Assembly: GCA_039208735.1 (NCBI GenBank)
Contig: JBCCQY010000101.1
Location: 1-33,922, forward strand
Reading direction: 5' to 3'
From: Myxococcota bacterium
GTDB taxonomy: Bacteria > Myxococcota_A > UBA796 > GCA-2862545
Length of the DNA stretch: 33,922 bases
Of this stretch, positions 1-27,205 are shown one piece after another (position 1 is the first letter of the stretch; every line of letters begins with the position of its first letter). Below the pieces are notes generated by a model, which worked only from the letters and a program-made list of their open reading frames with translations, was not told the DNA's origin and did no database searches. The translations under genes were made by a program, and so were the position numbers.

Positions 1-861
1 GTCGACGCCAACAGCAAGCTGTCGATCAGCGGGTCCGTCGCGGATGCGGTAGGGCCGGGCGTCGCCGGCTACCTCATTCAGTTCTTCTCGGCGCCGTACG
101 CCATCTTCATCGATGCCATGACCTACTTCGCCGCCGCCGGAATGTACGCGAGCATCCCCGACCACGAGCCCGCGCCGAATCCCCCGGCCCGTGACGCAGG
201 GCTCCTCCGGCGCGTGGCCGAGGGCCTCTCCACCCTCTGGGGGCACCGCGACCTGCGTGCGATCATGCTCTGTGGCGCCACCCACAACATCTGCTCCACC
301 GCCATTCGCGCGCTCTTCATCCTCTACATGAGCGACGAACTCGGCCTGGGCCCCGAAGCCGTCGGGCTGGTGTTTGCGTGCGGAGGCGTCGGTTCGATCG
401 TGGGCGGATCGCTGGCGCCGTGGCTGCAGCGCCGCTTTGGCACCCGCACGGCCTTGGTGGGATCCCAGTCGCTGACCGGGTTTGCGCGAGGCCTCATCCC
501 GGTCGCGGCCAGTTTTCCAGGGCTGGCGCTCCCCATTTTGTGCACCAGTTCAGGGCTGTTGGGCGTCGCGCGACCGGTCTTCAACGTCATCCAGCTGAGC
601 CTGAGAGGGCGGGCGGTGCCCGACCACCTGCAGGGACGGGTCACCGCTTCGTTTGGCTTTCTGATGTGGGGATTCACCCCGCTTGGCGCCTTGGTGGGAG
701 GCTACGCAGGAGCCACCTTCGGCATGCGACCCACGCTGATCGTAGCCGCGATCGGCGTGGTCCTCGCCACCGGGTGGTTGGCCTCGATCCGCGACGAATA
801 CCGTTTCAGTCCAGCGCCCGGGTCAGGTAATCGTGGGGAATCCGCAACATCTCCGGAATGA
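1..861 (+). CDS. MFS transporter (MFS_3/H+ antiporter-like), 5'-truncated by the window edge
   Basis: Frame is open from base 1 (VDANSKLSISGSVADAVGPGVAGYL...). Multiple TM helices; MFS loop motifs LQRRFGTR and VPDHLQGRV. Confidence 0.9.
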   Translation, partial: VDANSKLSISGSVADAVGPGVAGYLIQFFSAPYAIFIDAMTYFAAAGMYASIPDHEPAPNPPARDAGLLRRVAEGLSTLWGHRDLRAIMLCGATHNICSTAIRALFILYMSDELGLGPEAVGLVFACGGVGSIVGGSLAPWLQRRFGTRTALVGSQSLTGFARGLIPVAASFPGLALPILCTSSGLLGVARPVFNVIQLSLRGRAVPDHLQGRVTASFGFLMWGFTPLGALVGGYAGATFGMRPTLIVAAIGVVLATGWLASIRDEYRFSPAPGSGNRGESATSPE

Positions 862-2113
862 CGGCCACGAAGTTGCGCCGCGGACCGGCGCGTTCGGGAT
901 TGCGGAACGACCACACGACCTCCCGGCGAGCGTTCAACTCAAAGGCGTGGCCTTGGTTGCTTTCGGTGATGAGCAAGTGCCCCGCATCCAGTTCCTGGAC
1001 GGCTCCGAGGTAACGAGAACGTAACGGCGTCCCATCGATCTGGTCGATCCGCCACGCCTCTTCACCATCCTCCAATCCGAAGGCCCGAACGGCGCTTTGG
1101 TTCTCACCCAGACCAATGTTGTCGAAGACCATGAGGTGCCCGTCGCGTGTGATTTCGGGGTCGTGTTGTTCCCGGAACGGACCCTGCCACCACCACACCA
1201 CCTCTGCCGTGTCAGGATCGAGAACGACGAGCCCCGAAGGCGTCCGCATCGACAGCAACAGGTGACCCGGCTGAAAGGCAGGGTGGGCGTCCGCCATCGC
1301 GTCATCGAGTACCCGCAGGCTGTTCGTGTGGAACACGTCGCCGTCGGGGTACCCCGCCAGAAACGCCTCTCCAGCACTCGACGCGAGTACCGCATCGAGC
1401 AAGCTGATCTGAACCTCAGGGCACCCTTCAGCATCGAGGCGAGTCACGAAGTCCTCGAGCAAAGGCCGATGGTTGACGTCCCACCGCATGCGCGCCTGAC
1501 GGGAGAGCACCCAAACCCGTTCGTCGGGCAGCACCTCAAGATCGTGATGGGCTCCTCCGCCCCACGACCACACAACCTCAGAGTTCCAGTCAAGCCGGAT
1601 CAGTCCCTGGCCCTCGATGATGGCCAGCACATCGCCGTTGGGTCGCAAGGCCGCGCGACGCCAATATTGATGGTCTGACCTCCGATCATCGACGATGCGT
1701 TCGGGCCATAGAGCCTCAAACGGCATGCCCCAACGATGCCGCTCCTCGCCTTCGAGGTCCATGAGGACCGCCACGGCCCCATGTCCCGAGGTGTAGAACG
1801 CCAGCCCGTCCCGTGCGTCCGCCTCGTTCACCAACACCCCATCGACGAGCTTGGGAACTTCAAGACCAGCGACGTACCCCAGGTTCGCCAGCGCCATCAG
1901 CTCGGCCGACACCGCATCGTTGGCCGCACCGTCCTCAAGGTACCACCACAGTCCTCGCGCGGGCGACTCGGGCGGCGGCCCGCCATCGACGATGGGTGCC
2001 GCCGCAGGGTCCGGAACAGGACACCGCTGCCTGACCTCATCCGGCTCCGGGCTCTCCACCGGCTCGCTCGAAGGTGGCGGCGCACACCCTCCCAGCGCGA
2101 TGATCGTGAGCAT
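806..2113 (-). CDS. Arylsulfotransferase (ASST)-like beta-propeller lipoprotein
   Basis: Start re-called at ATG 2113 (GGGAGGG SD; MLTIIALGGC lipobox-like). ASST-type motifs AHHD, VFHTNS, QHDPE, VFDN. Confidence 0.8.
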   Translation of the reverse strand: MLTIIALGGCAPPPSSEPVESPEPDEVRQRCPVPDPAAAPIVDGGPPPESPARGLWWYLEDGAANDAVSAELMALANLGYVAGLEVPKLVDGVLVNEADARDGLAFYTSGHGAVAVLMDLEGEERHRWGMPFEALWPERIVDDRRSDHQYWRRAALRPNGDVLAIIEGQGLIRLDWNSEVVWSWGGGAHHDLEVLPDERVWVLSRQARMRWDVNHRPLLEDFVTRLDAEGCPEVQISLLDAVLASSAGEAFLAGYPDGDVFHTNSLRVLDDAMADAHPAFQPGHLLLSMRTPSGLVVLDPDTAEVVWWWQGPFREQHDPEITRDGHLMVFDNIGLGENQSAVRAFGLEDGEEAWRIDQIDGTPLRSRYLGAVQELDAGHLLITESNQGHAFELNARREVVWSFRNPERAGPRRNFVAVIPEMLRIPHDYLTRALD

Positions 2114-2136
2114 GTGGCCCTCCCTGGCGGCGCACT

Positions 2137-3594
2137 CTATCGGACGCGACCCGAGGGCGTCACCGGCCGAGTGTCGGGCACGACGAGGTGCGGCGGGAGC
2201 GGCGGCAATCCAAGGTCGGGATGCGCCCACACGTCGTAGTACCGCCGATGGTGCTGCTTGATCTTGCCCAGGTGGACGTAAGGAACCGAGGTTCCCTCAA
2301 GCCACACCCGATCCTCGGGGTATAGCAGCCACGTCGTGTTGGGTTGTCGAACCGTGGTGACGATGAGTTCGGGATCGGGCCACGCCTCGGGCGGTCCCGT
2401 CAGGCCCAAAGGATGCGTCTCGATCACCCGGTGCAAAGGGCCTATGCCATAGGCGAAGGCACCCGCGTCCCGGATCGCGACCGTCGAACCGGGTGGCAAT
2501 CGCTCAGCCAAGAACGCGGCCGCCTGAAGCGAGGCCCACGGTGCATCGACGCTGTGCTTGTGGTCGTCCTCGCGAACGGTGGACGGCAGCGGCGAAAGAT
2601 GAAGGAGCCCAAGTCCGACGACGAGGCTCAGACCGGCGGGTACGGCTCCCCTTCCGGGGCTCGCCGCAACGCCGGCCATCGCACAAGCGGAAAACACCCC
2701 TGCGGGCAGGAGCAGACGGCTGGCGGGCATCCATAGTTCGACCTGAAACGCCACCCCCACCAGCCCGACCGCCACGAGGACCAGCCCGAGCCCCTCCATG
2801 CGCCGAGGAAGGACCAGGGCAGCCCCGAGCAGACTCCACCCTACCCATGGCCACAGGACCCCATCGCGTCCGACGTAGCGAAGGTTTTCAACGAAGGAGA
2901 CGTCGGTGGTCTTGGCGAGTACCGGATGAGGAACCCAGGCGCCGTAGAACGCCAGGCGCCAGGCCTCCAGGACGACCAACGCCCCCACGAACCCGACGGC
3001 CACCTCCCGGCGGCGGTGGCGCAGGGCATCGAACGCCACGAACCACGCCCCCACCGCCATGCCCTCCGGCCGACAGAGGGCGAGGGCTACGCAGAGGACC
3101 GCGGTAAGCACCCGCCACGGGCCTTCCGCGGCAAATGTCGCCCATGCGGAAGCCACCAACAAGCACAACCACTGGGCAGTCTCAAGCCCGTTGGTGCACG
3201 CCACGACGACGTGGGGAGACAGCGCCAAGGTCGCCGGCGCAAGAAGCGTGGCGGGATGCCAGCGGCCGGCGAGGGTCGCCGCAAGTCCAGTGGCACACGG
3301 CAGCAACAGCAGCCCAAAGCCAAGGCCGGTCCAGGTCATAAACGGGTGCACCTCACCGGTCAGGACCAAGCCTAGGGCGAGCCACATCGTCCACAACGGG
3401 TTCGAAAACCCCTCTACGGACGGACCGTCGACGTTGAACACAAGCCCATGCCCGGCCACGAGGTGCGCTGCGTAGCGACCAGAAATCCACGCGTCATCGA
3501 CGGCGGAGCCAAGGGTTGGCAGAGCCAGGGCGACAAACGCGAGCCCGCAAACGACCCCACCGGGCCCAAGCCATCGTAGAGCAGCGAAGGGCAT
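2137..3594 (-). CDS. Polytopic membrane protein, GT-C-type glycosyltransferase (AftB/PMT-like)
   Basis: VDDAWISGRYAAHLVAGHGLVFN...VEGFSNPLW after the first TM helix, plus GLET and RPEG motifs and about 10 or more TM segments. Confidence 0.75.
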   Translation of the reverse strand: MPFAALRWLGPGGVVCGLAFVALALPTLGSAVDDAWISGRYAAHLVAGHGLVFNVDGPSVEGFSNPLWTMWLALGLVLTGEVHPFMTWTGLGFGLLLLPCATGLAATLAGRWHPATLLAPATLALSPHVVVACTNGLETAQWLCLLVASAWATFAAEGPWRVLTAVLCVALALCRPEGMAVGAWFVAFDALRHRRREVAVGFVGALVVLEAWRLAFYGAWVPHPVLAKTTDVSFVENLRYVGRDGVLWPWVGWSLLGAALVLPRRMEGLGLVLVAVGLVGVAFQVELWMPASRLLLPAGVFSACAMAGVAASPGRGAVPAGLSLVVGLGLLHLSPLPSTVREDDHKHSVDAPWASLQAAAFLAERLPPGSTVAIRDAGAFAYGIGPLHRVIETHPLGLTGPPEAWPDPELIVTTVRQPNTTWLLYPEDRVWLEGTSVPYVHLGKIKQHHRRYYDVWAHPDLGLPPLPPHLVVPDTRPVTPSGRVR

Positions 3595-3632
3595 GGGCCC
3601 CTGCTAGCTGGCGGGTAGTGTGGGAGTCCACC

Positions 3633-4914
3633 ATGGTTCCTCTTGCGGTTGCGTTTGTCGCCTGTCAGCCGAGTCGTCCAAAGCCCGCCAACATTGTGGT
3701 TGTAGTGCTCGACACCGTTCGCGCAGACCACCTGTCGACCTATGGCTATGCCCGCGAGACCACCCCGAATCTGACGCGCTTCGTCGCCAACGCAACGCAG
3801 TACCCACGGGCCTTCAGCAGCGCCCCTTGGACCCTGCCTTCGCATGCTTCGCTGTTCACAGGACGCCCCCCCCTTTGAGCACGGAGCCCACCTGGGGCCC
3901 GACGGGCAAGCTCAAGCGTACGACGGCCGCTTTCCGACCTTGGCCGAAGAGCTGAAGGACGCCGGGTACCGAACCGGGGCGTTCGTCGCCAACATCGGTT
4001 TTCTGGCGCCTCGGTGGGGACTTTCGCGAGGGTTCGATCGCTACGAGGTGATCGAAAGCCGGGCCTCCGAGATCACAGAGCACGCCCTGGACTGGCTCAA
4101 CGCCCCGTCCGACGCCCCCCAATTCCTCTTCTTGAACTACCTCGACGCCCACCGACCCTACCATACCGAGGTTCCAAGACCCGATGTCGTGGGCTATGCA
4201 GTTCCTGACACAATGGGCCCACTCGATGCATTAAAAGCCGAGGTTCTACCAGGCAAGCGCGACGCGCAACCGTCCCTCGTGTCGACGACGGAAGACCAAT
4301 ACGACACCGCACTGGCCAACCTCGATGCCGGACTGGGTCCGCTGCTCGATCGACTCGCCGCTGAATCCAACACGGTGGTGGTCATCACCTCGGACCATGG
4401 CGAGTTCTTGGGCGAGCACCGCTGGGCCGAGCACCCGCGGGACGTCTATGGGCCCGGCATCGCCGTGCCTTTGTTCATCCGGGAACCCAAGGTCGGTGGA
4501 GGCTCCGTCGACGACGTGACCTTTTCCCACGATCTGCCTGCGTTGATCCAAAGGGCCGCCGGTCTTCCCCAACCCTTTCCGCCGGGCCGTTGGCCGCTCG
4601 CAGAGCTGTATTACGACCACGCCCACTACCTGACGCGTCCCGATCTCGCGGCCCGCATGACCCGCGTACGTCGCGCCTGGATCGAATGGCCCGACAAACT
4701 CATCGTGAGCGAGCGCTCGGACAAGACGGACGTGGTGGAGCTGTACGACCTTGCAAACGATCCGGAAGAACGCCACAACCGAGCCTTGCTCGAGCCCAGG
4801 CGGGTGACCGAGCTGCGACGGAAGCTTCCGCCCCTCGTTCACGTGCAGCCTGCCTCGGTGGAGCTTTCACCGGAGGAACGCGCTCAACTCAAAGCCTTGG
4901 GGTACCTCGAGTAG
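3633..4914 (+). pseudogene. Sulfatase-like (alkaline phosphatase superfamily) lipoprotein, frameshifted at a C8 run; either a real pseudogene or a sequencing error
   Basis: Frame A (3633-3878): lipobox FVAC, NIVVVVLDTVRADHL, SAPWTLPSHASLFTG. Frame B (to 4914): TLAEELKDAGYRT, YLDAHRPY, TSDHGE, ELYDLANDPEE, LKALGY. Removing one C from 3866-3873 gives a single 426-aa ORF. Confidence 0.85.
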
Positions 4915-7540: not shown

Positions 7541-8263
7541 ATGACGCTGCACGATCTCGATGTCCGGCTGCCCGATGGGGACATTCAGCTGTTGAACCCA
7601 AAGAATCAGGCGTTCCTTCAGGGTGCTGGGGAACCGCAACTCGGCGGGTCGGGCGTCGTGCTCACCTGGGTGGGCCGCGCCATGATGGCGCTCTTCGGCG
7701 CGCTCTTGCTTCTGATCTTGGGCTTTACCACCATGATGACGGTGTGGGACTCCTCGCTCGCGACTGCGACCCAGGCGACGGTCCAACACCGCGAGGGCGA
7801 CGACGTCACCTACACGTTCGACGTCGACGGCGCGACGGTGACCGCGACCCAGGGTGGCTGGTTCAAGCCTGTCTACGGTAGCCCTGGCAAAACCATCGAC
7901 ATTCGCTACCTCAATGCATCGCCATCATGGACGTTGCTCGAGCTCAACTTCGAAAAAACCGACTGGTTCACGTTCGTTGGCATCGTCGGATTTCTGGGCA
8001 TCTTGACCTACGCCGGCTGGGCGTTGATTCGAGACTCCCAACGGATGCAGCGCCTCGGAGAACACGCCACCCACGTGCTGCCCGGCCAACTCGTGCTCGA
8101 GATTCCAGGGCCCAAGGGGTCTCGCAACTACGTCTACGAGTTCACGGCCCCGGACAACAAGACCCTTCGAGGCACGGTCCCGGTTGGCGCGATGGTGCGG
8201 TACTCCGTGCCGTCGCCCGTTGCCGTGCTGTATGCCAACGCTCGCACCCACCACATGCTGTGA
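7541..8263 (+). CDS. Hypothetical two-TM membrane protein (DUF3592-like layout)
   Basis: GGAGAGG SD. TM helix, beta-rich loop (VTYTFDVDG...IDIRY), second TM helix, then a second similar module (YVYEFTAPD...VAVLY). Confidence 0.6.
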   Translation: MTLHDLDVRLPDGDIQLLNPKNQAFLQGAGEPQLGGSGVVLTWVGRAMMALFGALLLLILGFTTMMTVWDSSLATATQATVQHREGDDVTYTFDVDGATVTATQGGWFKPVYGSPGKTIDIRYLNASPSWTLLELNFEKTDWFTFVGIVGFLGILTYAGWALIRDSQRMQRLGEHATHVLPGQLVLEIPGPKGSRNYVYEFTAPDNKTLRGTVPVGAMVRYSVPSPVAVLYANARTHHML

Positions 8264-8266
8264 TCA

Positions 8267-9064
8267 TCAGGATGCGGGCTTCGTCACCACGTTGAACTGG
8301 CCTGCGTTGCGAGCGATCTCCAGCTCGATCTCTGCCTCGCTGGCCCACGGCGGCCCAAAGAACGCAGGCCGCGCGAACGGCACGGTGAGCCCCTTGGCAA
8401 ACGAGGGGCGCTGATGCAGTCGATCGATCCACGCCCGAAGATGCGACATCTGGGAAATGTCGGCATTCGCCCAATACGCACTCGCACAATAGGCGAAACA
8501 CGCCACGTCAACCAGGGTGATGGCCGGTCCGAGCACGAAGGGGCCACCCGAAACGGCCAATTGATCGTCCAGCACCCCGAGGAGACGCTCGGCTTCCGCA
8601 ATGAAGCGCCCGATCGCGAACGGGTCGTCGTGGCCGCGAACTTTCGCGATGCGTTGGAAGTACATCGCCTGACCCATGGCGGGTCCCAGTCCACTCACCT
8701 GCCAATACAGCCACTGCTTGACGTTCAGGTGGGCGGCCAGGTCGTCCTCGGCACGAGGCAGCAGCGAGCTTTGGTAGCGCGTGGCCGCGTACTCGAGAAT
8801 CGCGCCACTCTCGGCAACCGCCACTCCCCGTGCCCGGTCGAGCAAGGCGGGAATGCGACCATTCGGATTGATGGCCAAAAACGGCTTGCTGCGCTGTTCG
8901 TTCTTGGCAAAGTCCACGAGGGCCCAGTCATAAGGAACGCCCATCTCCTCAAACACAATGGGCAACTTCCAACCGTTCTGGGTCGCGTAGATGAGGCAGC
9001 ACACCTCGCTGTGCGTGCTCGGCTCGTTCGCCTCTTCAAGCGGTACCTGTCGTCCCAGCGACAT
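8267..9064 (-). CDS. Glutathione S-transferase, Nu-class / YfcG-YghU / Ure2-like
   Basis: GGGAGG SD before ATG 9064. TQNGWK, FLAINPNGRIPAL, ESGAILEY, QWLYWQVSGLGPAMGQ. Confidence 0.9.
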   Translation of the reverse strand: MSLGRQVPLEEANEPSTHSEVCCLIYATQNGWKLPIVFEEMGVPYDWALVDFAKNEQRSKPFLAINPNGRIPALLDRARGVAVAESGAILEYAATRYQSSLLPRAEDDLAAHLNVKQWLYWQVSGLGPAMGQAMYFQRIAKVRGHDDPFAIGRFIAEAERLLGVLDDQLAVSGGPFVLGPAITLVDVACFAYCASAYWANADISQMSHLRAWIDRLHQRPSFAKGLTVPFARPAFFGPPWASEAEIELEIARNAGQFNVVTKPAS

Positions 9065-9135
9065 CCGCACCTCCCGCAGCCAGGCCCGTAGTGACCTCAT
9101 GGATAGAATGACGCCGTCATCCAGAGGAGATCTCG

Positions 9136-10587
9136 ATGGACGCGACGTCGCTGCTCGAAGGATTGGCGCAAGGAACCACAACCAGTGCTCGGTTGCTCGA
9201 CGAGCACATCGCCCGAATGGAGGCTCGAAACACAAGTCTCAACGCGATCGTCGCGACCAACCTCGAAGCCGCCCGTGCCCGCGCCGCGGAGGCGGATGCG
9301 GCTCGCGCGGAGGGAACATTGTGGGGGCCCCTCCACGGCTTGCCCATGACCATCAAGGACAGCTTCGAGGTCGTCGGAATGCCGGCCACCTCCGGCGCCA
9401 AGGCGCTGGCCCACCATGTGCCGGATCAGAACGCAGACGCCGTGGAGCGCCTCATCCGCGCCGGGGCCATCGTCTATGGCAAGACCAATCTCCCGGTCTA
9501 CGCTGGGGAATGGCAAAGTTTCAACCCAGTCTATGGGGTCACCTCCAACCCATGGGACATCTCCCGAACGCCCGGTGGGTCCTCGGGCGGCGGAGCTGCG
9601 AGCGTCGCCGCCGACTTTTCACCCCTCGAACTGGGAAGTGACGTCGGGGGGTCGATTCGCATTCCCGCCCACTTCTGCGGCGTCTTCGGGCACAAGCCGA
9701 CACACGGGCTCATTCCCCTCCGGGGTCACATTCCGGGGCCTCCCGGGTCGTTGTCCGAACCGGACCTCGCGGTGGCCGGCCCCCTCGCCCGATCCGCTCG
9801 CGATCTCGCGCTGATGCTCGACATCCTGGTCGGACCGGCGACGACCGAAACCGCCTGGCACCTCGATCTACCGGCTCCCAAAGCCCGCGCATTGGGTGAA
9901 TTCCGGGTGGGCCTCTGGACGTCAGACCCTGCCTGTCCGCTCGAAAGCGACGTATTGAGCGTGCTCGAGCCCGCGTTGGACCAACTGACCGATGCGGGGA
10001 TGCAAGGGAAGCGAGGTGCGCCCGCGGAGTTGGACCTTGCCACCATCAGCAAGCTCTACGTCAAGCAGCTGGCCCCGCTCATGGCCACGGGACTCCCCGA
10101 CCGGGTGTTCAATCGCTTGGGCACGATGCGTCAGGTCTTAAAGGTCACCTCCCTCTTCCGTGCTCCCCCCTCCCCGTTGCTGCCGATCTACCTCGAAGGG
10201 GCCATCCAACCGCACCGCTCGTGGCTCCGCCTCAAGGAGTTTCGAGCCAAGCTGCAGGCTCGAATGGCTCGCTGGTTCGAAACGTACGACGTCCTGTTGA
10301 CGCCGGTGGCGCCGTGGGCGGCCTTTCCCCACGCGCACGACGGCAACGTGATCACGCGCACCATTCAAGTGCCAAGCGGGCAACGCCCCTACGTGGACCA
10401 CCTCTACTGGATCGGACTGGCGACCGCCCTTGGCCTTCCCGCCACCTCCGTGCCCGTCGGCCGCACCGACGACGGACTGCCCGTCAGCGTTCAGGTCATC
10501 GGGCCGCGCTTTGGGGATCACACCTGCCTTGCGTTTGCCGCGGAAGTCGAAAGAGTGCTGGGAGGCTTTGTCGCTCCCCCCGCCTGA
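9136..10587 (+). CDS. Amidase signature family enzyme
   Basis: GPLHGLPMTIKD, GKTN, TPGGSSGG and LGSDVGGSIRIPA, which are the Ser-cisSer-Lys triad motifs. Confidence 0.95.
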   Translation: MDATSLLEGLAQGTTTSARLLDEHIARMEARNTSLNAIVATNLEAARARAAEADAARAEGTLWGPLHGLPMTIKDSFEVVGMPATSGAKALAHHVPDQNADAVERLIRAGAIVYGKTNLPVYAGEWQSFNPVYGVTSNPWDISRTPGGSSGGGAASVAADFSPLELGSDVGGSIRIPAHFCGVFGHKPTHGLIPLRGHIPGPPGSLSEPDLAVAGPLARSARDLALMLDILVGPATTETAWHLDLPAPKARALGEFRVGLWTSDPACPLESDVLSVLEPALDQLTDAGMQGKRGAPAELDLATISKLYVKQLAPLMATGLPDRVFNRLGTMRQVLKVTSLFRAPPSPLLPIYLEGAIQPHRSWLRLKEFRAKLQARMARWFETYDVLLTPVAPWAAFPHAHDGNVITRTIQVPSGQRPYVDHLYWIGLATALGLPATSVPVGRTDDGLPVSVQVIGPRFGDHTCLAFAAEVERVLGGFVAPPA

Positions 10588-10661
10588 GGACTCCGTTCAC
10601 GGAGTGAAAACCGCGCTCCACGAAGCATGCGCTATCCAGTTGGGACCTGCATCCCAGGGCA

Positions 10662-13382
10662 GTGCCGATGCGACCGGATACCGAAGCCCACCTCTGTCGA
10701 GCCCTCCTTTACCGGCATGTGATGCGCTCGATCGCGCGTCACTTCGTGGCCCGCGACCCTGAGCACGACTACCTGCTGAACCTGTCGATGTACGTGGCAT
10801 TTCACGTGGGAATCGCGACGTTCTACCCCGAGCGTGCCGACACCACCCTCGTCATCAAGATGCTCGCGTCGCGGGTTCGTGCGCTCAAGCCGCCCAACGT
10901 GACGGGACGCCATGCGCAACGCATCCGCGACCTCGCCCTCATCGCCGACCTCGCAAGTCGCGATGCACCGTCGCTGACGCAGCTCGAACCGTTTCTCCGT
11001 CGAGACCCGATGGCGGAACGTGAGCGCGTCCTCGCCCTCAACAGTCCGGCCTTCGACCCGTCGAATCGCAAGATCTTAGCGAGCTCTGCCGTGTGGCTGG
11101 GGCGCGCACGCAGCGAGACGGCCTACTTTTGGCCCATCGTGCGGCAACGCTACCTCGAAGACGCGAGCCGGCGGGTGTGGGTGGAATGGTTCGAGTCTCG
11201 CATTCATGGCTGGCCCCGACTCAAGCCATGGGAAGAGGAGTGGGCAAGCCTATCGGTCGAACAGTGGCACCAGAATCCGCCCACGCTAAACCACACCTTG
11301 ATGAGCATCCGGGAGGGCTACCAGACGGGCCACCCGCCGCGCATGGTGTCACCGGTGCGCTCGTTCCGCCGCGCCCGAGCCATCTTCCTCGGGCATGGAG
11401 GGGCCGGCAAGACCTCGCTCATCAATGTGCTGAATGGTGAAGCGCCGTTGCCGGAACACCTCGTGACGCGAGGCGTCGAGCAACAGGACTTTTCCTATGT
11501 GAGCGGCCAGCTCTCGCGCATTCACGACGAAGCAGATGCCGTAGCGCGAGTCTACGACGACCCCCGGACAGGCATCGGCATTCACTTCTGGGACTTCGGT
11601 GGCCAGGTGATGGCTCACGGCACGCACCGGTTCTTTCTGCGTGCCTCGTGCGTCTATGTGATCGTGCTGGATGGACGGCATGCGGATCGGGCCAACTCCG
11701 AAGCCGCTTACTGGCTCGACTACGTGCGGGCCTTTGCCTCCGAGACAACGCCGGTCATCGTGGTCGGCAACAAATCCGACATTCAGCATGTCTCGATCGA
11801 TCTAGCCAGTCTGCAACGTCGATATCCCAACGTGGTCGACTACGTGGCATTGTCGTGCCGCGAGGCCCATGCCCATCCCGAGGGACGTTGGGGACAAGCA
11901 CTTGAGCTGTTCCGCTCCGTGTTTCTCGAACAGGTCGAGCGGCTCGCGTCCCGGGTCACCTTGCCTCGAGCCCATTTCGAGACGTTGTTGGATGTTCAGC
12001 GAGCCGCGCGATCCGCGGACTTCATCACCGACCGGGCCTATCAGAAGATCTGTGAGCAACGTGGCGTCCACGTCGACGAACGGGGCCCCCTTCTCGCCCT
12101 ACTCGACCAACTCGGGGTCGCCCTCACCTTTCCGCAGATGCCGTTTCTGCGGGACTACGTGCTCAACCCGCGCTGGCTAACCTACGGGGTCTACACGATC
12201 CTGTACGATGAAGCCACCAAACAACGAGGTGGCCGGCTTACGGAAATCCAAGCCGCGGAACTACTGCTCCGGGCCGAGATCGAAGACCGCGGGCGACGCC
12301 TTCGCTATCCGCCCGAACGAGCCCACCATGTCATCGATGCGATGGAAGCCTTCCAAACGGCGTACCGGCTCTCGGACCGCTCGATCGTGATTCCAAGCCT
12401 GCTCCCGTTGGAGCAACCACGTCATCCCTTTGATTTCCGCAATGTTCTGGCGTTTCGTTTCCAGTTTGAAGGCCTACTTCCACCGCAACTCTTGCCGAGC
12501 CTCATCGTGAATCGCCATCGAGAGATTGCAGCATTGGGTACTGCAGTCTGGCGAAATGGCGTCATCCTCGCCCCCCGGGGTGGGCTCGATGCCCAAGCCT
12601 TTGTCGAGGCCGATTCGCGCCTGTCCCGGCTTGAAGTATCGGTAGGTGGGCAAGATGCTTCGACGTACCTCGGGATTCTTCGCGATGACGTTCGACGGGT
12701 CCTCGAAGGCATGCCCGACCTGCCCGTTCGCCAGGAACTGCGCCTGGGCCCCGATGTCGCCATGTTGGACCCTGGAGAAACACCGCCTCGTGAGCCCGTC
12801 TGGGTGGTCTACGACGGTCTTCGTACGGCAAAGCGGAAAGGGGCCAAGACGATCATCCACGGCGACCACATCTACTCGGTCAACCGTGCGCTGCAGGTGG
12901 CCCCATCCCTCACGCAGGTTCGTCCTACCGACGTGTTCTTGTCCTATTCGGGCACCGACCGACCCCACGCCGCGGAACTGGCCACGGCTCTTGAACTGGC
13001 TGGAATCAGCGTGTGGTGGGATCAGCAGCTGCGCGCCCACCACTTCTACCGAAATGTGATTGGCAAACGCATTCGCATGGCCAAGGCGGTCATCGTGCTG
13101 TGGTCGCGCTCCGGAGCCAGTGAGTTTGTGTGCGCGGAAGCAAACCTGGCCGGGCCCAAGCTGATCGGCCTCCTGGGTCCGGGTGCGGTCGTCGAAGATG
13201 TCCCGCTTCCCTTCAACGAGCGCCACGTGAGCCGCTACGACGATGTGGGCGCCTTGCGAAGCGCGCTCGAGGACTTTGGCGTGTACGGAGCGGACCGCCT
13301 GGTTCGTCACCGCGATCTCACCGACGGCGATGAGACCCAACCCGGGCCCGTGCGTAAGAAGCGCCGCTGGGGCTCATTCTGA
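10662..13382 (+). CDS. Roco-family protein: non-LRR N-terminal domain, Roc GTPase, COR, TIR
   Basis: G1 GHGGAGKTS (11391), G2 TRGV, G3 FWDFGGQ..HGTHRFFL (11589), G4 VGNKSD, G5 LSC. COR motifs LDQLG, LNPRWLTYGVYTIL, IPSLLP, WRNGVIL. TIR motifs DVFLSYS, GISVWWD, AVIVLWS, SEFVCAE. Start codon uncertain (no clear SD). Confidence 0.9.
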   Translation: MPMRPDTEAHLCRALLYRHVMRSIARHFVARDPEHDYLLNLSMYVAFHVGIATFYPERADTTLVIKMLASRVRALKPPNVTGRHAQRIRDLALIADLASRDAPSLTQLEPFLRRDPMAERERVLALNSPAFDPSNRKILASSAVWLGRARSETAYFWPIVRQRYLEDASRRVWVEWFESRIHGWPRLKPWEEEWASLSVEQWHQNPPTLNHTLMSIREGYQTGHPPRMVSPVRSFRRARAIFLGHGGAGKTSLINVLNGEAPLPEHLVTRGVEQQDFSYVSGQLSRIHDEADAVARVYDDPRTGIGIHFWDFGGQVMAHGTHRFFLRASCVYVIVLDGRHADRANSEAAYWLDYVRAFASETTPVIVVGNKSDIQHVSIDLASLQRRYPNVVDYVALSCREAHAHPEGRWGQALELFRSVFLEQVERLASRVTLPRAHFETLLDVQRAARSADFITDRAYQKICEQRGVHVDERGPLLALLDQLGVALTFPQMPFLRDYVLNPRWLTYGVYTILYDEATKQRGGRLTEIQAAELLLRAEIEDRGRRLRYPPERAHHVIDAMEAFQTAYRLSDRSIVIPSLLPLEQPRHPFDFRNVLAFRFQFEGLLPPQLLPSLIVNRHREIAALGTAVWRNGVILAPRGGLDAQAFVEADSRLSRLEVSVGGQDASTYLGILRDDVRRVLEGMPDLPVRQELRLGPDVAMLDPGETPPREPVWVVYDGLRTAKRKGAKTIIHGDHIYSVNRALQVAPSLTQVRPTDVFLSYSGTDRPHAAELATALELAGISVWWDQQLRAHHFYRNVIGKRIRMAKAVIVLWSRSGASEFVCAEANLAGPKLIGLLGPGAVVEDVPLPFNERHVSRYDDVGALRSALEDFGVYGADRLVRHRDLTDGDETQPGPVRKKRRWGSF

Positions 13383-13985
13383 GGCGCGGTGGACCCCCAA
13401 CCCCCGCAAGATCGTGTGGACGACGCCGTCCGTCACGTCCTTGGGGTCGCTCGCTAAGTTGCCGTCGACAATGAGGTGTGCGAGGCCGTGCATGGCCGCC
13501 CAGGCGGGAAGAGCGGCCGTCTCAGGTTCGAGGTCGACGCCAAGTCGATCGCGAATGTCGGAAAGCGAGTCGAGCAGAAGTTCGTACGGATTTCGGCCCT
13601 GCGCGCCTACTCCCTCAGTCTTGATGCGCTCCGCCGCCCGCGGTCCGAACGCCGTGCGAAACAGCGCCGGCTCATCGATCGCGAATTGCACATACGCACG
13701 TCCGGTCGCCACGAAGCGTTCAACAGGGTCGTCCGACTCCGCCATTCCCGTTTCCATACGTCGTGCAAGTTCAGCAAACGCGCTCGACGCCACCGCCGCG
13801 AGCAGGGCGTCCTTGTTGGCGAAGTGCCGATACGCGGCCGCTGCATCAACCCCCACGGCTCGAGCCGCAGCCCGCAGGCTGAACTTCGCATGGCCTGCGG
13901 AGCGCACCATCGCAAAGGCCTCCTCCACCAGCGCACGCTTGAGGTCGCCGTGGTGATAGCGATCCCGTGTTGGACGGTCGCTCAA
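13374..13985 (-). CDS. TetR-family regulator with WHG-type C-terminal domain
   Basis: RYHHGDLKRALV, FSLRAAARAVGVDAAAAYRHF, AWAAMHGLAHL. TTG start at 13985 behind GGAGG/GAGG. Confidence 0.9.
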   Translation of the reverse strand: MSDRPTRDRYHHGDLKRALVEEAFAMVRSAGHAKFSLRAAARAVGVDAAAAYRHFANKDALLAAVASSAFAELARRMETGMAESDDPVERFVATGRAYVQFAIDEPALFRTAFGPRAAERIKTEGVGAQGRNPYELLLDSLSDIRDRLGVDLEPETAALPAWAAMHGLAHLIVDGNLASDPKDVTDGVVHTILRGLGVHRASE

Positions 13986-14084
13986 TCCTCGCCCTCCAAA
14001 CCACCGCCTATCGGAAGCAGCGACGATGTCACACCGACGCGCTACTTGGTGCATTGGTCACGAAATGTCATGACCCGAGCGGAT

Positions 14085-18713: not shown

Positions 18714-19924
18714 TGGCGCGGCTCGCGAACGCCGTCGGGCTGGCGCTTACCCAACTCCGCCGAAACTGGACGCGCTCGTTGCTCACGTCGCTTGGGGTGC
18801 TCATTGGCGTGGCTGCGGTCATCGCAATGGTGGGGCTGGGACAGGGCGCTAGGGCATCCATCGAAGACGACCTCTCGGACATGGGCACCAACTTGCTCAT
18901 GATCGAGTCGGGAACCGGCGGAGGCCCCCAAGCGCGCTCCCCGGCCCCCCCGTTCGACCTCAACGACATCCGGGCACTCGAGCGCCAGGTGCCCTACATC
19001 CGCGCGGTTGCCCCGATGGTTTCGAGCCGCGCCACGGCGCAAAGCGGAGGAATCGAGTGGAACACCAAGGTCCAGGGCTCCACCCGAGGCTTCTTGGTGG
19101 CCCGCGACTGGGATGTGGCCGTGGGCCGCGGCTTTACGGACGGTGAAGAGCGGACCGGCGCGGCGGTTTGCGTGCTTGGAGCCACGGTCCACCAGGCGTT
19201 GTTCGAAGGCCTCGACCCGCTGGGTGCCCAGGTGCGGTTTGGCGCAGTGAGCTGCGACGTCATCGGCGTGCTCGATGCCAAAGGAACGAACACGATGGGC
19301 ATGGACCAAGATGACTTGATCTTCGTGCCGCTAAGCCTGGTCCAACGCCGGTTGATTGGAACCACCGACCTGGCTTCGATTCTGGTATCGATCGACGATG
19401 TGGCCCATGTCGACGTTGCGCGCGGCTCGATGGATCAGTTGCTTCGCAGTCGGCGACACGTCACGAGCGACGAGACCGTCAACTTCCAGATCCGCGACAC
19501 GCGGCGAATGGCCTCGATGGTGCGGGGAGTGACGAACACACTCACCGCCTTTCTGGCTGCGATTGCCAGTGTGAGCCTGCTGGTGGGCGGCATCGGCATC
19601 ATGAACATCATGCTGGTCTCAGTGACGGAGCGAACCCGCGAAATCGGCATTCGCATGTCGATCGGCGCCCTCGAGGGCGACGTGATGATGCAGTTCTTGG
19701 TCGAGGCAGTGGTGCTCTCGCTGTTCGGCGGGGGCCTGGGGGTGGGCCTGGGGATTGTGGCGACCGCGGCGTTGGCGACGGCCTTGGCGGTGCCCATCGT
19801 GGTCGATCCGGCCATCGTCGCCCTGTCGCTCACGGTCTCGGCGGTCCTTGGGGTGGTGTTCGGATGGTGGCCCGCCCGGCGCGCCGCACGACTCGAACCC
19901 ATCGATGCCCTTCGTCACACCTGA
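18713..19924 (+). CDS. MacB/FtsX-type ABC permease
   Basis: RSLLTSLGVLIGVAAVIAM, SLLVGGIGIMNIMLVSVTERTREIGIR, PARRAARLEPIDALR. Confidence 0.96.
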   Translation: MARLANAVGLALTQLRRNWTRSLLTSLGVLIGVAAVIAMVGLGQGARASIEDDLSDMGTNLLMIESGTGGGPQARSPAPPFDLNDIRALERQVPYIRAVAPMVSSRATAQSGGIEWNTKVQGSTRGFLVARDWDVAVGRGFTDGEERTGAAVCVLGATVHQALFEGLDPLGAQVRFGAVSCDVIGVLDAKGTNTMGMDQDDLIFVPLSLVQRRLIGTTDLASILVSIDDVAHVDVARGSMDQLLRSRRHVTSDETVNFQIRDTRRMASMVRGVTNTLTAFLAAIASVSLLVGGIGIMNIMLVSVTERTREIGIRMSIGALEGDVMMQFLVEAVVLSLFGGGLGVGLGIVATAALATALAVPIVVDPAIVALSLTVSAVLGVVFGWWPARRAARLEPIDALRHT

Positions 19925-19988
19925 TTTGCACAACCAGACGTGCCGACAGCTATGGTCTCCGTCGGTGACGTCGCTGCGTTTGGAGGTC

Positions 19989-21344
19989 ATGGTGCTGCGT
20001 GCAAGTTGTCTGTGGTTGCTGGGCATCGCGTGTACGCCCCCCGAAGATGTGGTCGACGACCTCTCGAAACCGACCCCCACCCTACCGACCGAGACCACTC
20101 TGTCGCCTCTCCCCAAGGCCGATCCGGACCCCGATCCCAAGCCCAACGCTCCGACGGCCACCGGAGACTGTGAAGCCACGGACCATCCGTTGGTGTTCCG
20201 ATGCCGTTTCGAGATGTCGGAAAAGGCCCCCCTCCGGCTGACCGTGACCTCGCCAACCGCGACGGAGCGAACCTTCGAGCGCCCGGCCGCCGTGACGCAC
20301 GAGCTGCTTGCATGGGGACTTGAAGCCGACACCACCTACACCTGGACCGTGTCGAACGCGACAGGTTCGCTGACCACGGGATTGCTTCCCACCGAACTCA
20401 ACCCCCTCACCGTGGATGTGCAGGGGACGTTGTTCGGCACCGATGCGGTGCTGGTCTACGTGGGGTGCGGGTACTTCTTGATGATCGAGAGCGATGGCGA
20501 TGTGGTGTGGTTCGGGGAGACCGACGTCTACGACTTCCTCGCCGACGGAATGATGTGGTCGCAAGAGACCCGCACGGTCCTCGCGTTGCGCGACAGCACG
20601 ATGTCGTTCAACGAGCCCAGCAAGTACGAAGAGATCGACCTCCTCGGTCAGACCCTGCTCGAGCTGAACGAGGGCGTCGACTTCGACGCTCGACTCACCC
20701 ACGACATAGGCCGTTGGCAAGGGTACACCTACCTCCTCGCCGAAGATCAGTCCCGGGGAGGCGGATTCCTGGTCTACGATGGCCCGACGTTCTTGGGACA
20801 ATGGTCGCTGTTGGACGACTTCGTGACGGGAAACTCCCACGTGAACGGGCTCACCGTGAGCACTACGGGCGAGGTGGTGATTTCCGACCTGACCTCCGAC
20901 ACCATCGTCGCGGTCGACGGAGACCCCGCATCGCCCACATTCCTCAAACGGCTGTGGCACGCTTCGGGGGGCACCGGTTCGAACCTGCCCGACCCCGACT
21001 ATGAGCCGGTCTCCGGCATCCTGTTCGACGGCCAGCATAATGCGAGTCGACACGGCGATGAACTGTGGGTGTTCGACAACCGAAGCCAGGGCGATTCTCG
21101 TGCGCTGCGCATGGCGATGGACCACGTCAACGGCAAGCTCACCGAGATCGACAGTTGGTCGATGAACCGGCGTTGCAACAACCAGGGCGGCGCGATGCCC
21201 CTCCCTGGCGGGGTACTTGCGACCTGTGCCAATACCGGCCGAGTGCTCGCCTTCGCGGACGGCTCTAACGAGGCCGAATGGGCGATGCTCGCCGAGTGTC
21301 AGGGGGCCGGAATGACGCGTGCCTTCCCGGTCACCATCAATTGA
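19989..21344 (+). CDS. Arylsulfotransferase (ASST)-like lipoprotein with N-terminal Ig/Fn3-like domain
   Basis: TGGAGG SD; lipobox LGIAC; Pro/Thr linker; GLEADTTYTWTV; motifs THD, SHVNGL, GQHNA, WVFDN. Confidence 0.7.
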   Translation: MVLRASCLWLLGIACTPPEDVVDDLSKPTPTLPTETTLSPLPKADPDPDPKPNAPTATGDCEATDHPLVFRCRFEMSEKAPLRLTVTSPTATERTFERPAAVTHELLAWGLEADTTYTWTVSNATGSLTTGLLPTELNPLTVDVQGTLFGTDAVLVYVGCGYFLMIESDGDVVWFGETDVYDFLADGMMWSQETRTVLALRDSTMSFNEPSKYEEIDLLGQTLLELNEGVDFDARLTHDIGRWQGYTYLLAEDQSRGGGFLVYDGPTFLGQWSLLDDFVTGNSHVNGLTVSTTGEVVISDLTSDTIVAVDGDPASPTFLKRLWHASGGTGSNLPDPDYEPVSGILFDGQHNASRHGDELWVFDNRSQGDSRALRMAMDHVNGKLTEIDSWSMNRRCNNQGGAMPLPGGVLATCANTGRVLAFADGSNEAEWAMLAECQGAGMTRAFPVTIN

Positions 21345-22934
21345 TCACGACGGATCGAGCACGGGAGCGAGCGTCTCGAGCCGCTCCGCGACCACAGGGC
21401 AGTACTTCGCATTCGCGAAGATGGCGCACGGGCTGATCGCTTCCGCCCGGAATGCCATGTCATGGACGCTGTCGTATTGGACTTCCCAGAGTTTTTCGCC
21501 CGTCGTCGGATCGACTTCGACAAATGACGTCCGATCGCCAGGCGTGGGGGTTGCTGCCTCGATGTGGCCCATGGCGATGAGCACGCGTTCACCGGAGGTG
21601 TAGTCCACGCCGCCAAGGCTCGTCTCGTACCATTGGGGCTCCGTCCAATCCCACAGTTTCGTGGCCGTCATGGTGGACTCATCCAGGCGGTACTCCACCG
21701 CGCGGCTGAAGCCTCGTTGGTTGCCGTTGTCGTAGACCAACAGACGGTCATCGCGCCGTTGCAATCCATGCTGACACTGGGGATATTCGGAGTCCGGCAA
21801 TGCGTTGCCGTCGGTATCAACCAGGTCAAAGTCACCGTTTCGGCCAAATGTCCAACGCCAATCGCCGCTGGGCACGTCCACCGCCACGGTCCATCCTTGC
21901 GTGCACAGGCTGACGTACATGACGTCCTGGCCGTCCACGTCCACGATGTCGACCCAGTTGGCGTGGTACGCATCGCCGCCCCCGCCGGGCAGGTTCCCCT
22001 CGTCAAAAGGACGCTGACTCGACCAATCGAACGTCACCTCGTCGGTTTCGGGATCGACGATGCGCACGCCAAATCCGCGGAACGTCCCGCCTCCCGGACG
22101 CTGGATCACCGGTTCTTCCAACGTGAGGAACTGACCGTCGGACAACTCCCTTGCATCGTGGTGAAACCACGTGGCGTTGAGATCGCCTAGGGCCACGGCC
22201 GAATCGTAGCGAACATCGGAGCCAAACAGCTCGATCTGCTGGGGGCGTCCGTTGTGATTGGGAGGCCAACCTCCCCCGATGGTGAACGCTTGGCTCGTGG
22301 GAGACCAGTTGACCGCCGAACCTCCGACACCACCCCCTGCGTTGGCTGCGGCCCGCCACCGAACCTGGGCATCCCGGTCCACCACCAATCGACGCTGTCC
22401 GTTCCAACCATCATTGCGCTGATGATTTGTGAGCACATAGTCGCGGCCGGCCGACGCTTGGTGAACCTCGAGGTTCATCTGTGGTAGGTCCGAATTCGAT
22501 TCATCACCGGTTTGTAGAGTTAGAACCGTCGGCACCTCCGTCGTCGTGGGGCAAACGGGGGCCACCGTGCAGGTGTAGGTGGACGACGCGAGCAGTCCCG
22601 CAAGCCTCAGGGTGTGGTCCAGTTGCGCCTCGACGCCTTCCACCAAGTGAACCTCGGTGTCATCACCGTCAAGCGCGCAGGCGACGGCAAGAGCGGCCGA
22701 CGACGACAATGAGACGGTGAAGCGAGCCTCGTGCTCGGACCACGGCTGTTCGACCATCGCACTCTCGACGACGAGTCCGGCCTCAGACTCACAGGGCTTT
22801 GGTCCCTTCGTCACCACGCTGGTCCCGGTGTCAACCGGCGGCGCCGAGGGGTCCGATGGGTCGCCTGTGACGTCCATCTCATCGGTCCCCCCTCCGCATG
22901 CGACTAAAGACCACCACACGAGGCTGCGCATCAT
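21345..22934 (-). CDS. Arylsulfotransferase (ASST)-like lipoprotein with N-terminal Ig/Fn3-like domain
   Basis: CGGAGGA SD (start 22934 or 22931); lipobox LVAC; GLLASSTYTCTV; motifs FHHD, DAYHANWV, CQHGL, VYDNG, SRAVEYRLD. Confidence 0.78.
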   Translation of the reverse strand: MMRSLVWWSLVACGGGTDEMDVTGDPSDPSAPPVDTGTSVVTKGPKPCESEAGLVVESAMVEQPWSEHEARFTVSLSSSAALAVACALDGDDTEVHLVEGVEAQLDHTLRLAGLLASSTYTCTVAPVCPTTTEVPTVLTLQTGDESNSDLPQMNLEVHQASAGRDYVLTNHQRNDGWNGQRRLVVDRDAQVRWRAAANAGGGVGGSAVNWSPTSQAFTIGGGWPPNHNGRPQQIELFGSDVRYDSAVALGDLNATWFHHDARELSDGQFLTLEEPVIQRPGGGTFRGFGVRIVDPETDEVTFDWSSQRPFDEGNLPGGGGDAYHANWVDIVDVDGQDVMYVSLCTQGWTVAVDVPSGDWRWTFGRNGDFDLVDTDGNALPDSEYPQCQHGLQRRDDRLLVYDNGNQRGFSRAVEYRLDESTMTATKLWDWTEPQWYETSLGGVDYTSGERVLIAMGHIEAATPTPGDRTSFVEVDPTTGEKLWEVQYDSVHDMAFRAEAISPCAIFANAKYCPVVAERLETLAPVLDPS

Positions 22935-23033
22935 TTCCTCCGACGAACCCGGGAGGTAGCCGTACGAAGGCGCCAGCACCACCGGGTCGTAACGACCGTG
23001 ATGCCGCGAGCCGCACAGGATCTGACGGAGGCG

Positions 23034-23579: not shown

Positions 23580-25031
23580 CTACGGCAGAGGCCGTTCGAG
23601 CCATTCCTCGATCACCGTGCGTTCGGGCTCACCGAAGTTGGGGTCTTGCGGCGGCATGTCTTGCAGGTCCACCACACGTGCCTCGATGTTCGCGAGTCGG
23701 TCCTGCCACGCCTCAAGGGTCGTCAAATCGGTACTGATGCCGTCCACCCCGTGACATCCGGCGCAATGCCGATCGAAGATGGGCTTCACATCGACGGCCC
23801 AGCTGCGTTCTCCGGGGAGGCGTAGCTTGTGGACGGACAGGGTGCGCGTCACGGTGCTCTCGCCACGGGTGGCCTCCAACGTGAAGCGGGTCGTCGGATC
23901 GGTCGGGAAGGCGCCACTCGCCGACCATCCACCCTCGGGTGTCTCGACGAGCGGAACGACAGCGCCATTGGCCGAGACAGCCAAGGACCACCCCGTCTCC
24001 TTGCCCAACTCGGGACTCACCACCTCGGCCGTGAAGGTGTACAACTCGTCTCGGGTGGCCTGATTGGGACGAAGCCCATCGACACGGATCGCAGGCCCAT
24101 CGGCGTGGTGGCAAAGCTGGCCTTCTTCGACAACCCAAACGCCATGGGCGTGGGCCACCACATCGACCACCGGCCGCTTCGGATCCACCGCAAGGCGTGC
24201 GAACGCACCGTCGCGAACGCGAAGCACGCTCGAGGAACCGGCCACGTAGAGCGTGTCACCGCCGCCCTCAACGCGCTCAAGGCTCTCGGGACCCTGCAGT
24301 GCGTAGCCGGTCCAGCGCTCTGGCGCACCCACCCATAACGTACCGCCCGTCAGCAAAATCCCCAGATCTTCATCGGCCGCCGCCCCATCGACCCAGCCTG
24401 CGAAGCCTTCGAAGAACTCGGCCCGGTCTGCATCAACGCGCCACAGCAGGCCATCGTCCGACAGGCCCCAGGTGATTCCGTCGGCCCCCTGACACTGCCC
24501 GTCCCGATCGAGAAGCTGCGCGAGCGGTGCATCCCCGGTGGGCTCCCAGAGGTACCATGCGTCGTCTTGCTGTTCGACCCATTGGCCGTCAGAAACAAGG
24601 ATTCCATTTGTTTCAAGTTCGCCACACCACGGAATGCGCTCATCGATCGAAATGGGGGGTTCTGACAACCGAACGCGAGGACCACCGTCGGGCAGGCGCC
24701 ATACCGTTCCACCCGCCACAAACGTGGCATCGTCATCGGACCACGCCCGCATTTGCTGAATTGGCGGAAGTTCGAGGGTTCGCGTCACCGACGTACCGTC
24801 GCCGAATGGATCAATAATACGGAATTGTGGATTGCCTTCCCCCTCCGTGACCAACCACGCGTGGCCCTCAGGGGAGATCGCGCCAATTCGCTCGCCAGAA
24901 CCCAGAGAAACACACTGTTCAGTGGTCTCGACGGTGGGGACGGATGCCAGGTCGACGGGTTGGAGTTCGGCGGGCACAATGAAGCTCGTCAGCCCGCATC
25001 CCGCGAAGAGTACCCAGATGAACGATGACAT
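23580..25031 (-). CDS. Lipoprotein with a beta-rich (propeller-like plus Ig-like) body and a C-terminal monoheme cytochrome c domain
   Basis: AAGGA SD before ATG 25031; lipobox FAGC. SWAVDVKPIFDRHCAGCHG (CxxCH at 23751-23765), then DMPP and IEEW. Confidence 0.75.
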   Translation of the reverse strand: MSSFIWVLFAGCGLTSFIVPAELQPVDLASVPTVETTEQCVSLGSGERIGAISPEGHAWLVTEGEGNPQFRIIDPFGDGTSVTRTLELPPIQQMRAWSDDDATFVAGGTVWRLPDGGPRVRLSEPPISIDERIPWCGELETNGILVSDGQWVEQQDDAWYLWEPTGDAPLAQLLDRDGQCQGADGITWGLSDDGLLWRVDADRAEFFEGFAGWVDGAAADEDLGILLTGGTLWVGAPERWTGYALQGPESLERVEGGGDTLYVAGSSSVLRVRDGAFARLAVDPKRPVVDVVAHAHGVWVVEEGQLCHHADGPAIRVDGLRPNQATRDELYTFTAEVVSPELGKETGWSLAVSANGAVVPLVETPEGGWSASGAFPTDPTTRFTLEATRGESTVTRTLSVHKLRLPGERSWAVDVKPIFDRHCAGCHGVDGISTDLTTLEAWQDRLANIEARVVDLQDMPPQDPNFGEPERTVIEEWLERPLP

Positions 25032-27198: not shown

Positions 27199-27205
27199 GG
27201 ATCCG

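Follow-up and report, generated by a model that had tools for sequence, protein, structure and literature searches.

A Roc-COR-TIR Protein of a Myxococcota Bacterium with an Unnamed Helical Domain in the Leucine-Rich Repeat Position: A Candidate Single-Gene Immune Switch

Domain Make-Up and Integrity of the Gene

What a bacterial Roco GTPase might do when it ends in a TIR domain and lacks leucine-rich repeats (LRRs) at its front is the question raised by a single gene of a Myxococcota bacterium (assembly GCA_039208735.1, contig JBCCQY010000101.1). The window, meaning the whole stretch of 33,922 nucleotides that was analyzed, was the entire contig, and belonged to a 9.4-Mb genome with 64% GC and 93% completeness. 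The gene (10662..13382, plus strand) encoded 906 aa from the GTG at 10662 or 904 aa from the ATG at 10668; the database gene call, P0002, had 904 aa, consistent with the ATG start. Judged by profile matches and a structure model, the predicted product combines a helical domain with an intact Roc-COR GTPase and a TIR in one protein. The new element is the helical domain, which is unnamed, mobile, and variable, and stands in the LRR position.

The Roc GTPase (11382..11864, plus strand, as for all features of the gene) matched Pfam Roc at aa 241-373 with an E of 9e-16. Its motifs were G1 GHGGAGKTS (residues 244-252, 11391-11417), the G2 Thr269 (11466-11468), G3 WDFGGQ (310-315, 11589-11606), G4 NKSD (370-373, 11769-11780), and G5 SCRE (398-401, 11853-11864), and these residues were near-invariant across a 59-row family alignment. 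COR-A (11994..12404; PF16095, aa 445-581, E 3.5e-20) and COR-B (12441..12848; PF25497, aa 594-729, E 3.7e-11) came directly after Roc, so the protein has the make-up of the Roco (Roc-COR) family. COR-B is the dimer interface in solved Roco proteins (PMC6337361, PMC11052575). The TIR_2 domain (12933..13277; aa 758-830, E 1.8e-12) carried an FxxxE motif with Phe822 at 13125-13127 and Glu826 (GAA) at 13137-13139. No LRR family was matched in the protein by Pfam, even at E<=1. The first-pass annotation had described a 906-aa open reading frame (ORF) without LRRs but with five Roc G-motifs, COR, and a C-terminal TIR keeping a Glu at 13137-13139. Pfam and the motif positions agreed with it, and the profile check that it proposed returned Roc, COR-A, COR-B, and TIR_2 over the curated cut-offs.

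The closest solved relatives by sequence search were Roco2 of M. barkeri (4wnr, E 4e-39) and the Roco of C. tepidum (3dpu, E 7e-38). Furthermore, the AlphaFold model of the full protein, built from the 59-row alignment, had a pLDDT of 82 and a pTM of 0.72, and its top Foldseek match was again 3dpu (E 9e-28).

A truncated or frameshifted LRR-Roco was ruled out: the open frame ran only 18 codons further upstream, the family itself begins with the helical domain, and contigs of the probable source run spanned the gene with 0 differences. An assembly chimera was ruled out as well. Contigs from other runs, about 96-99% identical, covered parts of the gene and bridged both ends, joining the upstream amidase to the gene start and the gene end to the TetR gene. 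In addition, 30/30 in-gene single-nucleotide variants (SNVs) from related strains were synonymous, compared with 26% expected by chance; these were the in-gene ones among the 40 of 57 variants listed, and they lay in codons 313-890 (Roc, COR, and TIR), with no N-terminal SNVs among those listed. The contigs and the pattern of substitutions indicate that the gene is real and maintained under purifying selection.

Among the family TIR domains, the catalytic Glu was kept in 39/39 complete rows. The residue four positions before it was Trp in 33, Tyr in 3, and Phe in 3, the last group including the window protein. The TIR likely cleaves NAD. In PADLOC 2.0, the protein had no full-length match to a defence model; only the TIR part was matched, weakly, at E 2e-7 or worse.

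The Helical N-Terminal Domain

The N-terminus was all-helical, with 12 helices, in the AlphaFold models of both aa 1-233 (84 rows, pLDDT 79) and the whole protein, and it occupied the position held by the LRRs in other Roco proteins. Its N-terminal half (aa 1-135, 10662..11066) was modelled as a divergent helix bundle and is a candidate variable sensor surface. The conserved Trp-rich half (aa 136-222, 11067..11327) ended in an alpha0-type helix before Roc. A family hidden Markov model (HMM) built without the query matched aa 169-220 (E 4e-11 at Z=1; hhalign 93%), and the N-terminus is therefore not unique. The C-terminal end of the N-domain profile also matched the pre-Roc helix of M. barkeri Roco2 4wnr (E 1e-8), partly due to Roc residues. 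In the C. tepidum Roco, the alpha0 helix is the swivel for the LRR (PMC11052575).

Typical members began with a conserved RxAxRxxP motif; their middle was Ala-rich and their end Trp-rich. Among 23 proteins of the TIR clade, the identity was 33% in the Ala-rich middle (80-136 aa), 64% in the Trp-rich end, 71% in Roc-COR, and 68% in TIR. At the single locus examined for this, the Ala-rich middle consisted of a degenerate tandem array rich in GCC. Between the window protein and its nearest relative, the identity was 14% in the N-terminal half versus 47% in Roc-COR. Against the family N-half profile, aa 1-130 scored like shuffled sequences (307/455 listed rows scored as high). Searches with aa 1-240 or 1-200 found only the protein itself at near or shorter lengths, longer proteins not being searched with this region.

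The divergence of this half bears on the idea that the gene is a weakened or redirected copy, in which the N-terminal half was replaced and an FxxxE TIR with little NADase activity acts through TIR-TIR binding to another TIR protein of the host. Phe822 and the lack of an HMM relation for aa 1-130 would fit it, and so would the TIR-rich host genome, where at least 13 further ORFs matched the family TIR profile at E<=1e-4 (C69, C104, C83, C4, C113, C271, C102, and others). However, Glu826 is kept, the listed TIR SNVs were all synonymous, and the Tyr or Phe found at the motif Trp in 6/39 family TIRs argues that an aromatic swap is tolerated. We regard such a copy as quite unlikely.

A profile search of 1.84 billion representatives showed that the domain reaches well beyond Roco proteins. 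It returned 254 clusters at E<=1e-30, 2674 clusters at E<=1e-10, and 4976 matches at E<=1e-3, of which the looser counts may contain matches driven by Ala richness or alpha0. The best 150 matches were divided equally between 75 with Roc-COR and 75 without, many of the latter short and possibly cut. Thirty-nine non-Roco proteins with extra sequence were scanned: 7 with TIR_2, 2 with NACHT (one of them also with a calcineurin-like phosphoesterase), 2 with TerD, and 28 with no Pfam match. Many non-Roco proteins contained 2-3 tandem copies of the domain, and it was also found ahead of Roc-COR behind a caspase.

Several of these architectures deserve mention in their own right. P0105, P0173, P0178, P0194, P0201, P0229, and P0240 had 1-3 tandem helical domains followed by TIR_2 and no NTPase, and are candidates for a switch-less sensor-TIR family. 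In P0104, P0221, P0167, P0186, P0209, and P0226, the domain was fused to a calcineurin-like phosphoesterase with NACHT and pentapeptide repeats, to NACHT, to a caspase with Roc-COR, or to TerD; by eye, P0226 was a fusion to a truncated KAP-type P-loop. Moreover, P0120, P0147, P0155, P0161, P0210, and the tandem forms P0158, P0188, and P0190 had a C-terminal region of about 300 aa without a Pfam match, possibly a new effector.

No Pfam or PHROG family was shared across 53 and 84 members, respectively, and Foldseek gave no match at E<=1e-3 in PDB or BFVD. The best structural row was 2q9r (DUF416/YjaG, a fold also represented by 3f7c), with Z 6.9, a root-mean-square deviation of 3.9, and 144 aligned residues, followed by a second DUF416 entry at Z 5.0; both are below the trust level for helical bundles. 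The E. coli YjaG reached a probability of <1% against the N-domain family profile, the same as unrelated controls. An Imm5-like family (PF21805) was an Atlas lead of 0.76 for a family member. For the window N-terminus itself, the best Atlas cluster scored 0.76, a lead only, and its size and length equalled those of the 0.92 match of a typical member. The DUF416 and Imm5-like leads were unconfirmed, and searches for such genes were blank. The earlier suggestion that the novelty lies in the N-terminus was borne out by a domain that lacks a Pfam, PHROG, or PDB match and also occurs outside Roco proteins.

The N-domain is a large unnamed family tied to conflict-type architectures and a candidate new sensor. 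It likely acts as a variable sensor in place of the LRRs. A broader proposal, possible although we consider it somewhat unlikely, is that it represents a new class of module for pattern recognition in bacteria. Such a module would be a helix bundle whose low-complexity core varies in length, and it would stand alone or in 2-3 tandem copies ahead of Roc-COR, NACHT, or a bare TIR. In its Roco form, the module would belong to an immune receptor of inverted NLR logic, where the GTP-driven break-up of a dimer frees the TIR NADase; if this is true, a physiological output that can be assayed would be available for the first time for a bacterial homologue of LRRK2.

Members and Distribution of the Clade

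A search with aa 130-906 found 102 proteins at E<=1e-20, including the query, among 8000 candidates scored. LRR families were absent from the best 84 non-self matches, and TIR_2 was present in 52 of the best 56, at 36-44% identity. The genome scan kept 80 of 94 confirmed loci. The hosts were Rhodomicrobium and other Alphaproteobacteria, cable bacteria, Thiotrichales, methanotrophs, and anammox bacteria, and by the record titles a single genome can carry as many as 5 paralogues. No orthologue was found in 40 relatives of the host; two of them had other Rocos at 29-34% identity, and the other matches were TIR-only. In addition, the N-domain profile matched in 0/250 other genomes sampled from the phylum, and viral contigs held no phage-borne copies.

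The FastTree tree was built on 71 Roc-COR regions, reduced from 151 by redundancy with fragments dropped. The N-domain proteins formed a group of their own, distinct from the LRR forms, on a long branch with a support of 0.845 and with one further member just outside, and the window protein together with P0003 (0.999) was sister to an alphaproteobacterial TIR group (join 0.788). The window protein is one member of a sporadically distributed clade of Roco proteins without LRRs, and its own nearest clade is alphaproteobacterial. Any horizontal gain, as inferred from tree and distribution, would be old because the composition is host-like. The window copy is a divergent member, and a relative with WxxxE from the Alphaproteobacteria may be better suited to tests.

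The C-terminal domains are swapped across the clade. The 56 tails scanned (71 extracted) included 9 with TIR_2 and 1 with DUF4062; 4 had only weak unrelated matches, and the remainder had none. By eye, some of the unmatched tails had two transmembrane segments, and others had a low-complexity stretch ahead of a helical domain. Tails of the latter kind, with an Asn/Ile/Gly/Ser-rich stretch, were found in most members from Gammaproteobacteria and cable bacteria (L021:3770-4342, L025, L027, L064, L072, L078, and L091). The stretch may be reminiscent of amyloid signalling motifs. The helical domain that follows it is listed as DUF4404 in the 2021 table discussed below.

Other features of individual loci were also observed. 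In L018, L034, L051, L066, L092, L098, and L037, the clade gene was split within or just past the N-domain, once by a Tn5-type insertion sequence (IS; L037:10297-11625); the splits may stem from errors of assembly, from decay, or from phase variation of the repeat-like core. At two Gallionella loci, a separate small LRR gene lay directly downstream of the LRR-less Roco (L064:12297-13082 and L065:12341-13189). In three alphaproteobacterial metagenome-assembled genomes (L016, L018, and L066), the gene lay in a shared region close to chorismate synthase, and an IS1595 or MT-A70 methylase gene adjoined it in two of them.

Possible Function and Comparison with Known Systems

All steps beyond the domain content are inference. 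The reading we favor, to which we give slightly less than an even chance, is a single-gene immune sensor, switch, and NAD-cleaving effector, with the COR dimer as its inactive state and open GTP monomers as its active one. By analogy with the C. tepidum Roco, the resting empty or GDP-bound form would be a closed COR-COR dimer, and the GTP form an open monomer, its N-terminal domain swung away by alpha0. A symmetric TIR dimer would be inactive, as in AbTir-type TIRs, whose active site forms in head-to-tail chains. An invader molecule would bind the variable helical domain and favor the open GTP state; the freed TIRs would then chain up and hydrolyze NAD+ to ADP-ribose. The infected cell would stop or die, and its neighbours would be spared. 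Cyclic NAD products are less likely because the motif Trp is Phe.

A conflict or immune role has indirect support from the sporadic distribution, the swapped effectors, the variable N-terminus, the invariant TIR Glu, and neighbourhoods rich in toxin-antitoxin (TA) genes. For the neighbourhoods, the near set was the 150 nearest of 227 ORFs within 3 kb (72 loci), and the far set comprised 150 of the 185 ORFs lying more than 6 kb away (56 loci). TA, nuclease/methylase/caspase-type, or transposase families were matched by Pfam in 24/150 near versus 3/150 far ORFs (Fisher p 2e-5). The 24 near ORFs were 15 TA (12 loci), 6 nuclease/methylase/caspase-type, and 3 transposase ORFs. The first-pass annotation had named a fixed housekeeping context of conserved core genes among the findings that would speak against an immune role; no conserved housekeeping context was seen. 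Across the 80 loci, there was no conserved partner gene or operon, and the Thoeris partner ThsA was found neither in the window nor as a conserved neighbour of the homologues. Searches of the genome for STALD and ThsA_Macro returned nothing, and neither did their controls. A separate gene for the N-domain was rejected too: the 8 N-domain ORFs without Roc-COR in 160 loci all lay directly upstream of a Roco frame and were read as broken or cut gene pieces.

A number of observations weigh against the favored reading. The TA, nuclease, and IS classes were chosen post hoc, kin are not independent, and the signal may mark only insertion hot spots. The enrichment of defence islands that the first-pass annotation proposed to test was not seen by PADLOC: its matches next to homologues were 8/150 near versus 5/150 far, or 6 versus 1 without evident housekeeping cross-hits. 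Since the neighbourhoods were rich in TA and IS genes and flat in PADLOC, the homologues sit in variable insertion sites, with classical defence islands not shown. In the window, a Pfam scan found no defence-type family in the 35 other ORFs, to which PADLOC was not applied. The gene kept its position in related strains that came from three studies and had a host-like composition (third-position GC of 0.73 versus 0.70-0.82), both unlike fast-turnover defence genes. Only the Trp-rich half of the helical domain was demonstrably homologous to the family, aa 1-130 not being demonstrably so to its variable core. The TIR was FxxxE rather than the usual WxxxE, whose Trp is needed by AbTir for cleavage and cyclization. 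Moreover, AbTir, the closest-studied TIR type, had no anti-phage activity in E. coli, according to a 2026 preprint (10.64898/2026.10.06.757174). Searches of the open-access literature found no experiment in which a bacterial Roco was tried in defence or against phage.

The surroundings of the gene would also suit a signalling function in the stress response or development of a bacterium that is social or filamentous, where the TIR would make small amounts of ADP-ribose-type signal or serve as a scaffold under the control of GTP levels, with no phage role. As first noted, the gene was alone between an amidase (9136..10587, plus strand) and a convergent TetR regulator (13374..14054, minus strand), both assigned by Pfam and neither a conserved partner, within metabolic and regulatory genes. 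The stable position, host-like composition, purifying selection, regulatory and metabolic neighbours, and absence of PADLOC enrichment all agree with signalling, and many clade hosts are cable bacteria, Thiotrichales, and Rhodomicrobium. However, the gene was not found in kin, effectors are swapped, paralogues have expanded, and the clade showed neither a conserved partner gene (80 loci) nor a separate N-domain partner (160 loci). A signalling role is thus considered unlikely.

Elsewhere in the window, three arylsulfotransferase-like genes, a sulfatase, and a PSD2 (DUF1585) and DUF1501 pair (806-4914, 19755-22982, and 24832-28546) are ordinary for such hosts. The genome had 13 MYXO-CTERM matches over the cut-off, which makes a myxobacterium-like host probable, and a single copy of Roc-COR at its 93% completeness. 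Synteny of the flanks was not found in four same-genus genomes, and scans for promoters, terminators, and repeats gave nothing above chance. The DNA occurred in marine and microbial-mat metagenomes, and no RNA dataset was among its listed holders. In run X1, one contig joint skipped 5264 bases (8215 to 13480) including the gene, with only 22 letters on one side, and is probably another organism or a chance match.

The polarity of the switch is the second point to be weighed. In an opposite arrangement with the same immune role, the GTP monomer would rest, and GTP hydrolysis or depletion on infection would drive COR dimers that join and activate the TIRs; in that case, what the protein guards would be the nucleotide pool or its own GTPase cycle. 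In the C. tepidum Roco, GTP yields monomers, and dimers form with GDP or without nucleotide (Deyaert 2017, PMC5714945). Prokaryotic Rocos have a low affinity for GDP and work without an exchange factor (PMC6337361), so that cellular GTP would keep them mostly monomeric, and TIRs need self-association. These points favor the opposite arrangement. On the other side, a two-fold symmetric dimer gives no head-to-tail TIR interface, and the variable N-domain suggests ligand sensing. In AbTir, such symmetric dimers are inactive, the head-to-tail filament is active, and the motif Trp has a role (10.64898/2026.10.06.757174). The cycle with the dimer off and the GTP monomer on is likelier because Roco dimers are two-fold symmetric and split on GTP binding, and TIR active sites need head-to-tail contact. 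We consider the opposite polarity improbable; an immune role of either polarity is fairly probable.

Of the NLR-like layout proposed earlier, the scheme of sensor, switch, and effector is the best fit to the parts of the protein and how they evolved. The NLR rule that the NTP-bound form is the oligomer and the active state is not directly transferable, because of the reported dimer-monomer cycle of the C. tepidum Roco (PMC5714945). The proposed immune role gained indirect support from the sporadic distribution, swapped effectors, and TA-rich sites; as a hypothesis it was not new, having been predicted in PMC8195603. For LRRK2, it is still a matter of debate how an effector is controlled by the nucleotide cycle of Roc-COR; this GTPase-effector coupling becomes measurable in a compact Roco whose read-out is enzymatic (NAD+ cleavage).

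Among single-gene systems, the Avs and bacterial NACHT (NLR-like) anti-phage proteins follow the same sensor-NTPase-effector logic. These are STAND ATPases that are oligomeric when active; the window protein has no sequence relation to them, and PADLOC matched only its TIR part. The AbTir/PdTir-type NADases (7uwg, 8g83, and 3h16) were the nearest solved TIRs, with weak matches (E 0.014-0.5) and a shared catalytic Glu. Their accessory dimerizing domain is a coiled coil, whereas the window protein has Roc-COR, and they carry WxxxE where it has FxxxE. The C. tepidum Roco (3dpu, 6hlu, and 8r4b) and M. barkeri Roco2 (4wnr) share the Roc-COR fold, the G motifs, and the pre-Roc alpha0 helix. All prokaryotic Rocos were placed in the LRR group by a 2019 review, with their physiological role little known (PMC6337361).

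The Roc-COR-effector class has been known as a prediction since 2021, and the general design is not new. Kaur et al. described AP-GTPases in ternary conflict systems in 2020 (PMC7159879), and in 2021 predicted proteins of LRR, AP-GTPase, COR, and effector as counter-invader systems with at least 24 effectors including TIR (PMC8195603). In the Figure 6 source data of the latter, a table of members without detected LRRs names no N-terminal domain and contains two AP-GTPase+COR+TIR entries, Ca. Kentron AP-GTPase+COR entries with two transmembrane segments, and Methylovulum entries with DUF4404. The Ca. Kentron entries of 839, 844, 851, and 598 aa equal P0079, P0084, P0081, and P0076 by species name and length rather than by sequence, and the LRR-less entries of that table appear to include the clade of the window protein. 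No description of the helical domain was found in the open-access literature. Like the 2021 proteins, the window protein is a single gene with a Roc-COR core and a variable C-terminal effector including TIR, and is a computational prediction only. That class shows paralogue expansions; the window clade has up to 5 copies per genome, and the window genome has one. The class is defined by rapidly evolving N-terminal LRRs, whereas the window protein has instead a helical domain that measures about 230-300 aa and varies in its core. As the LRR-less table of the paper itself already contains such proteins, it is a variant rather than a typical member of the class.

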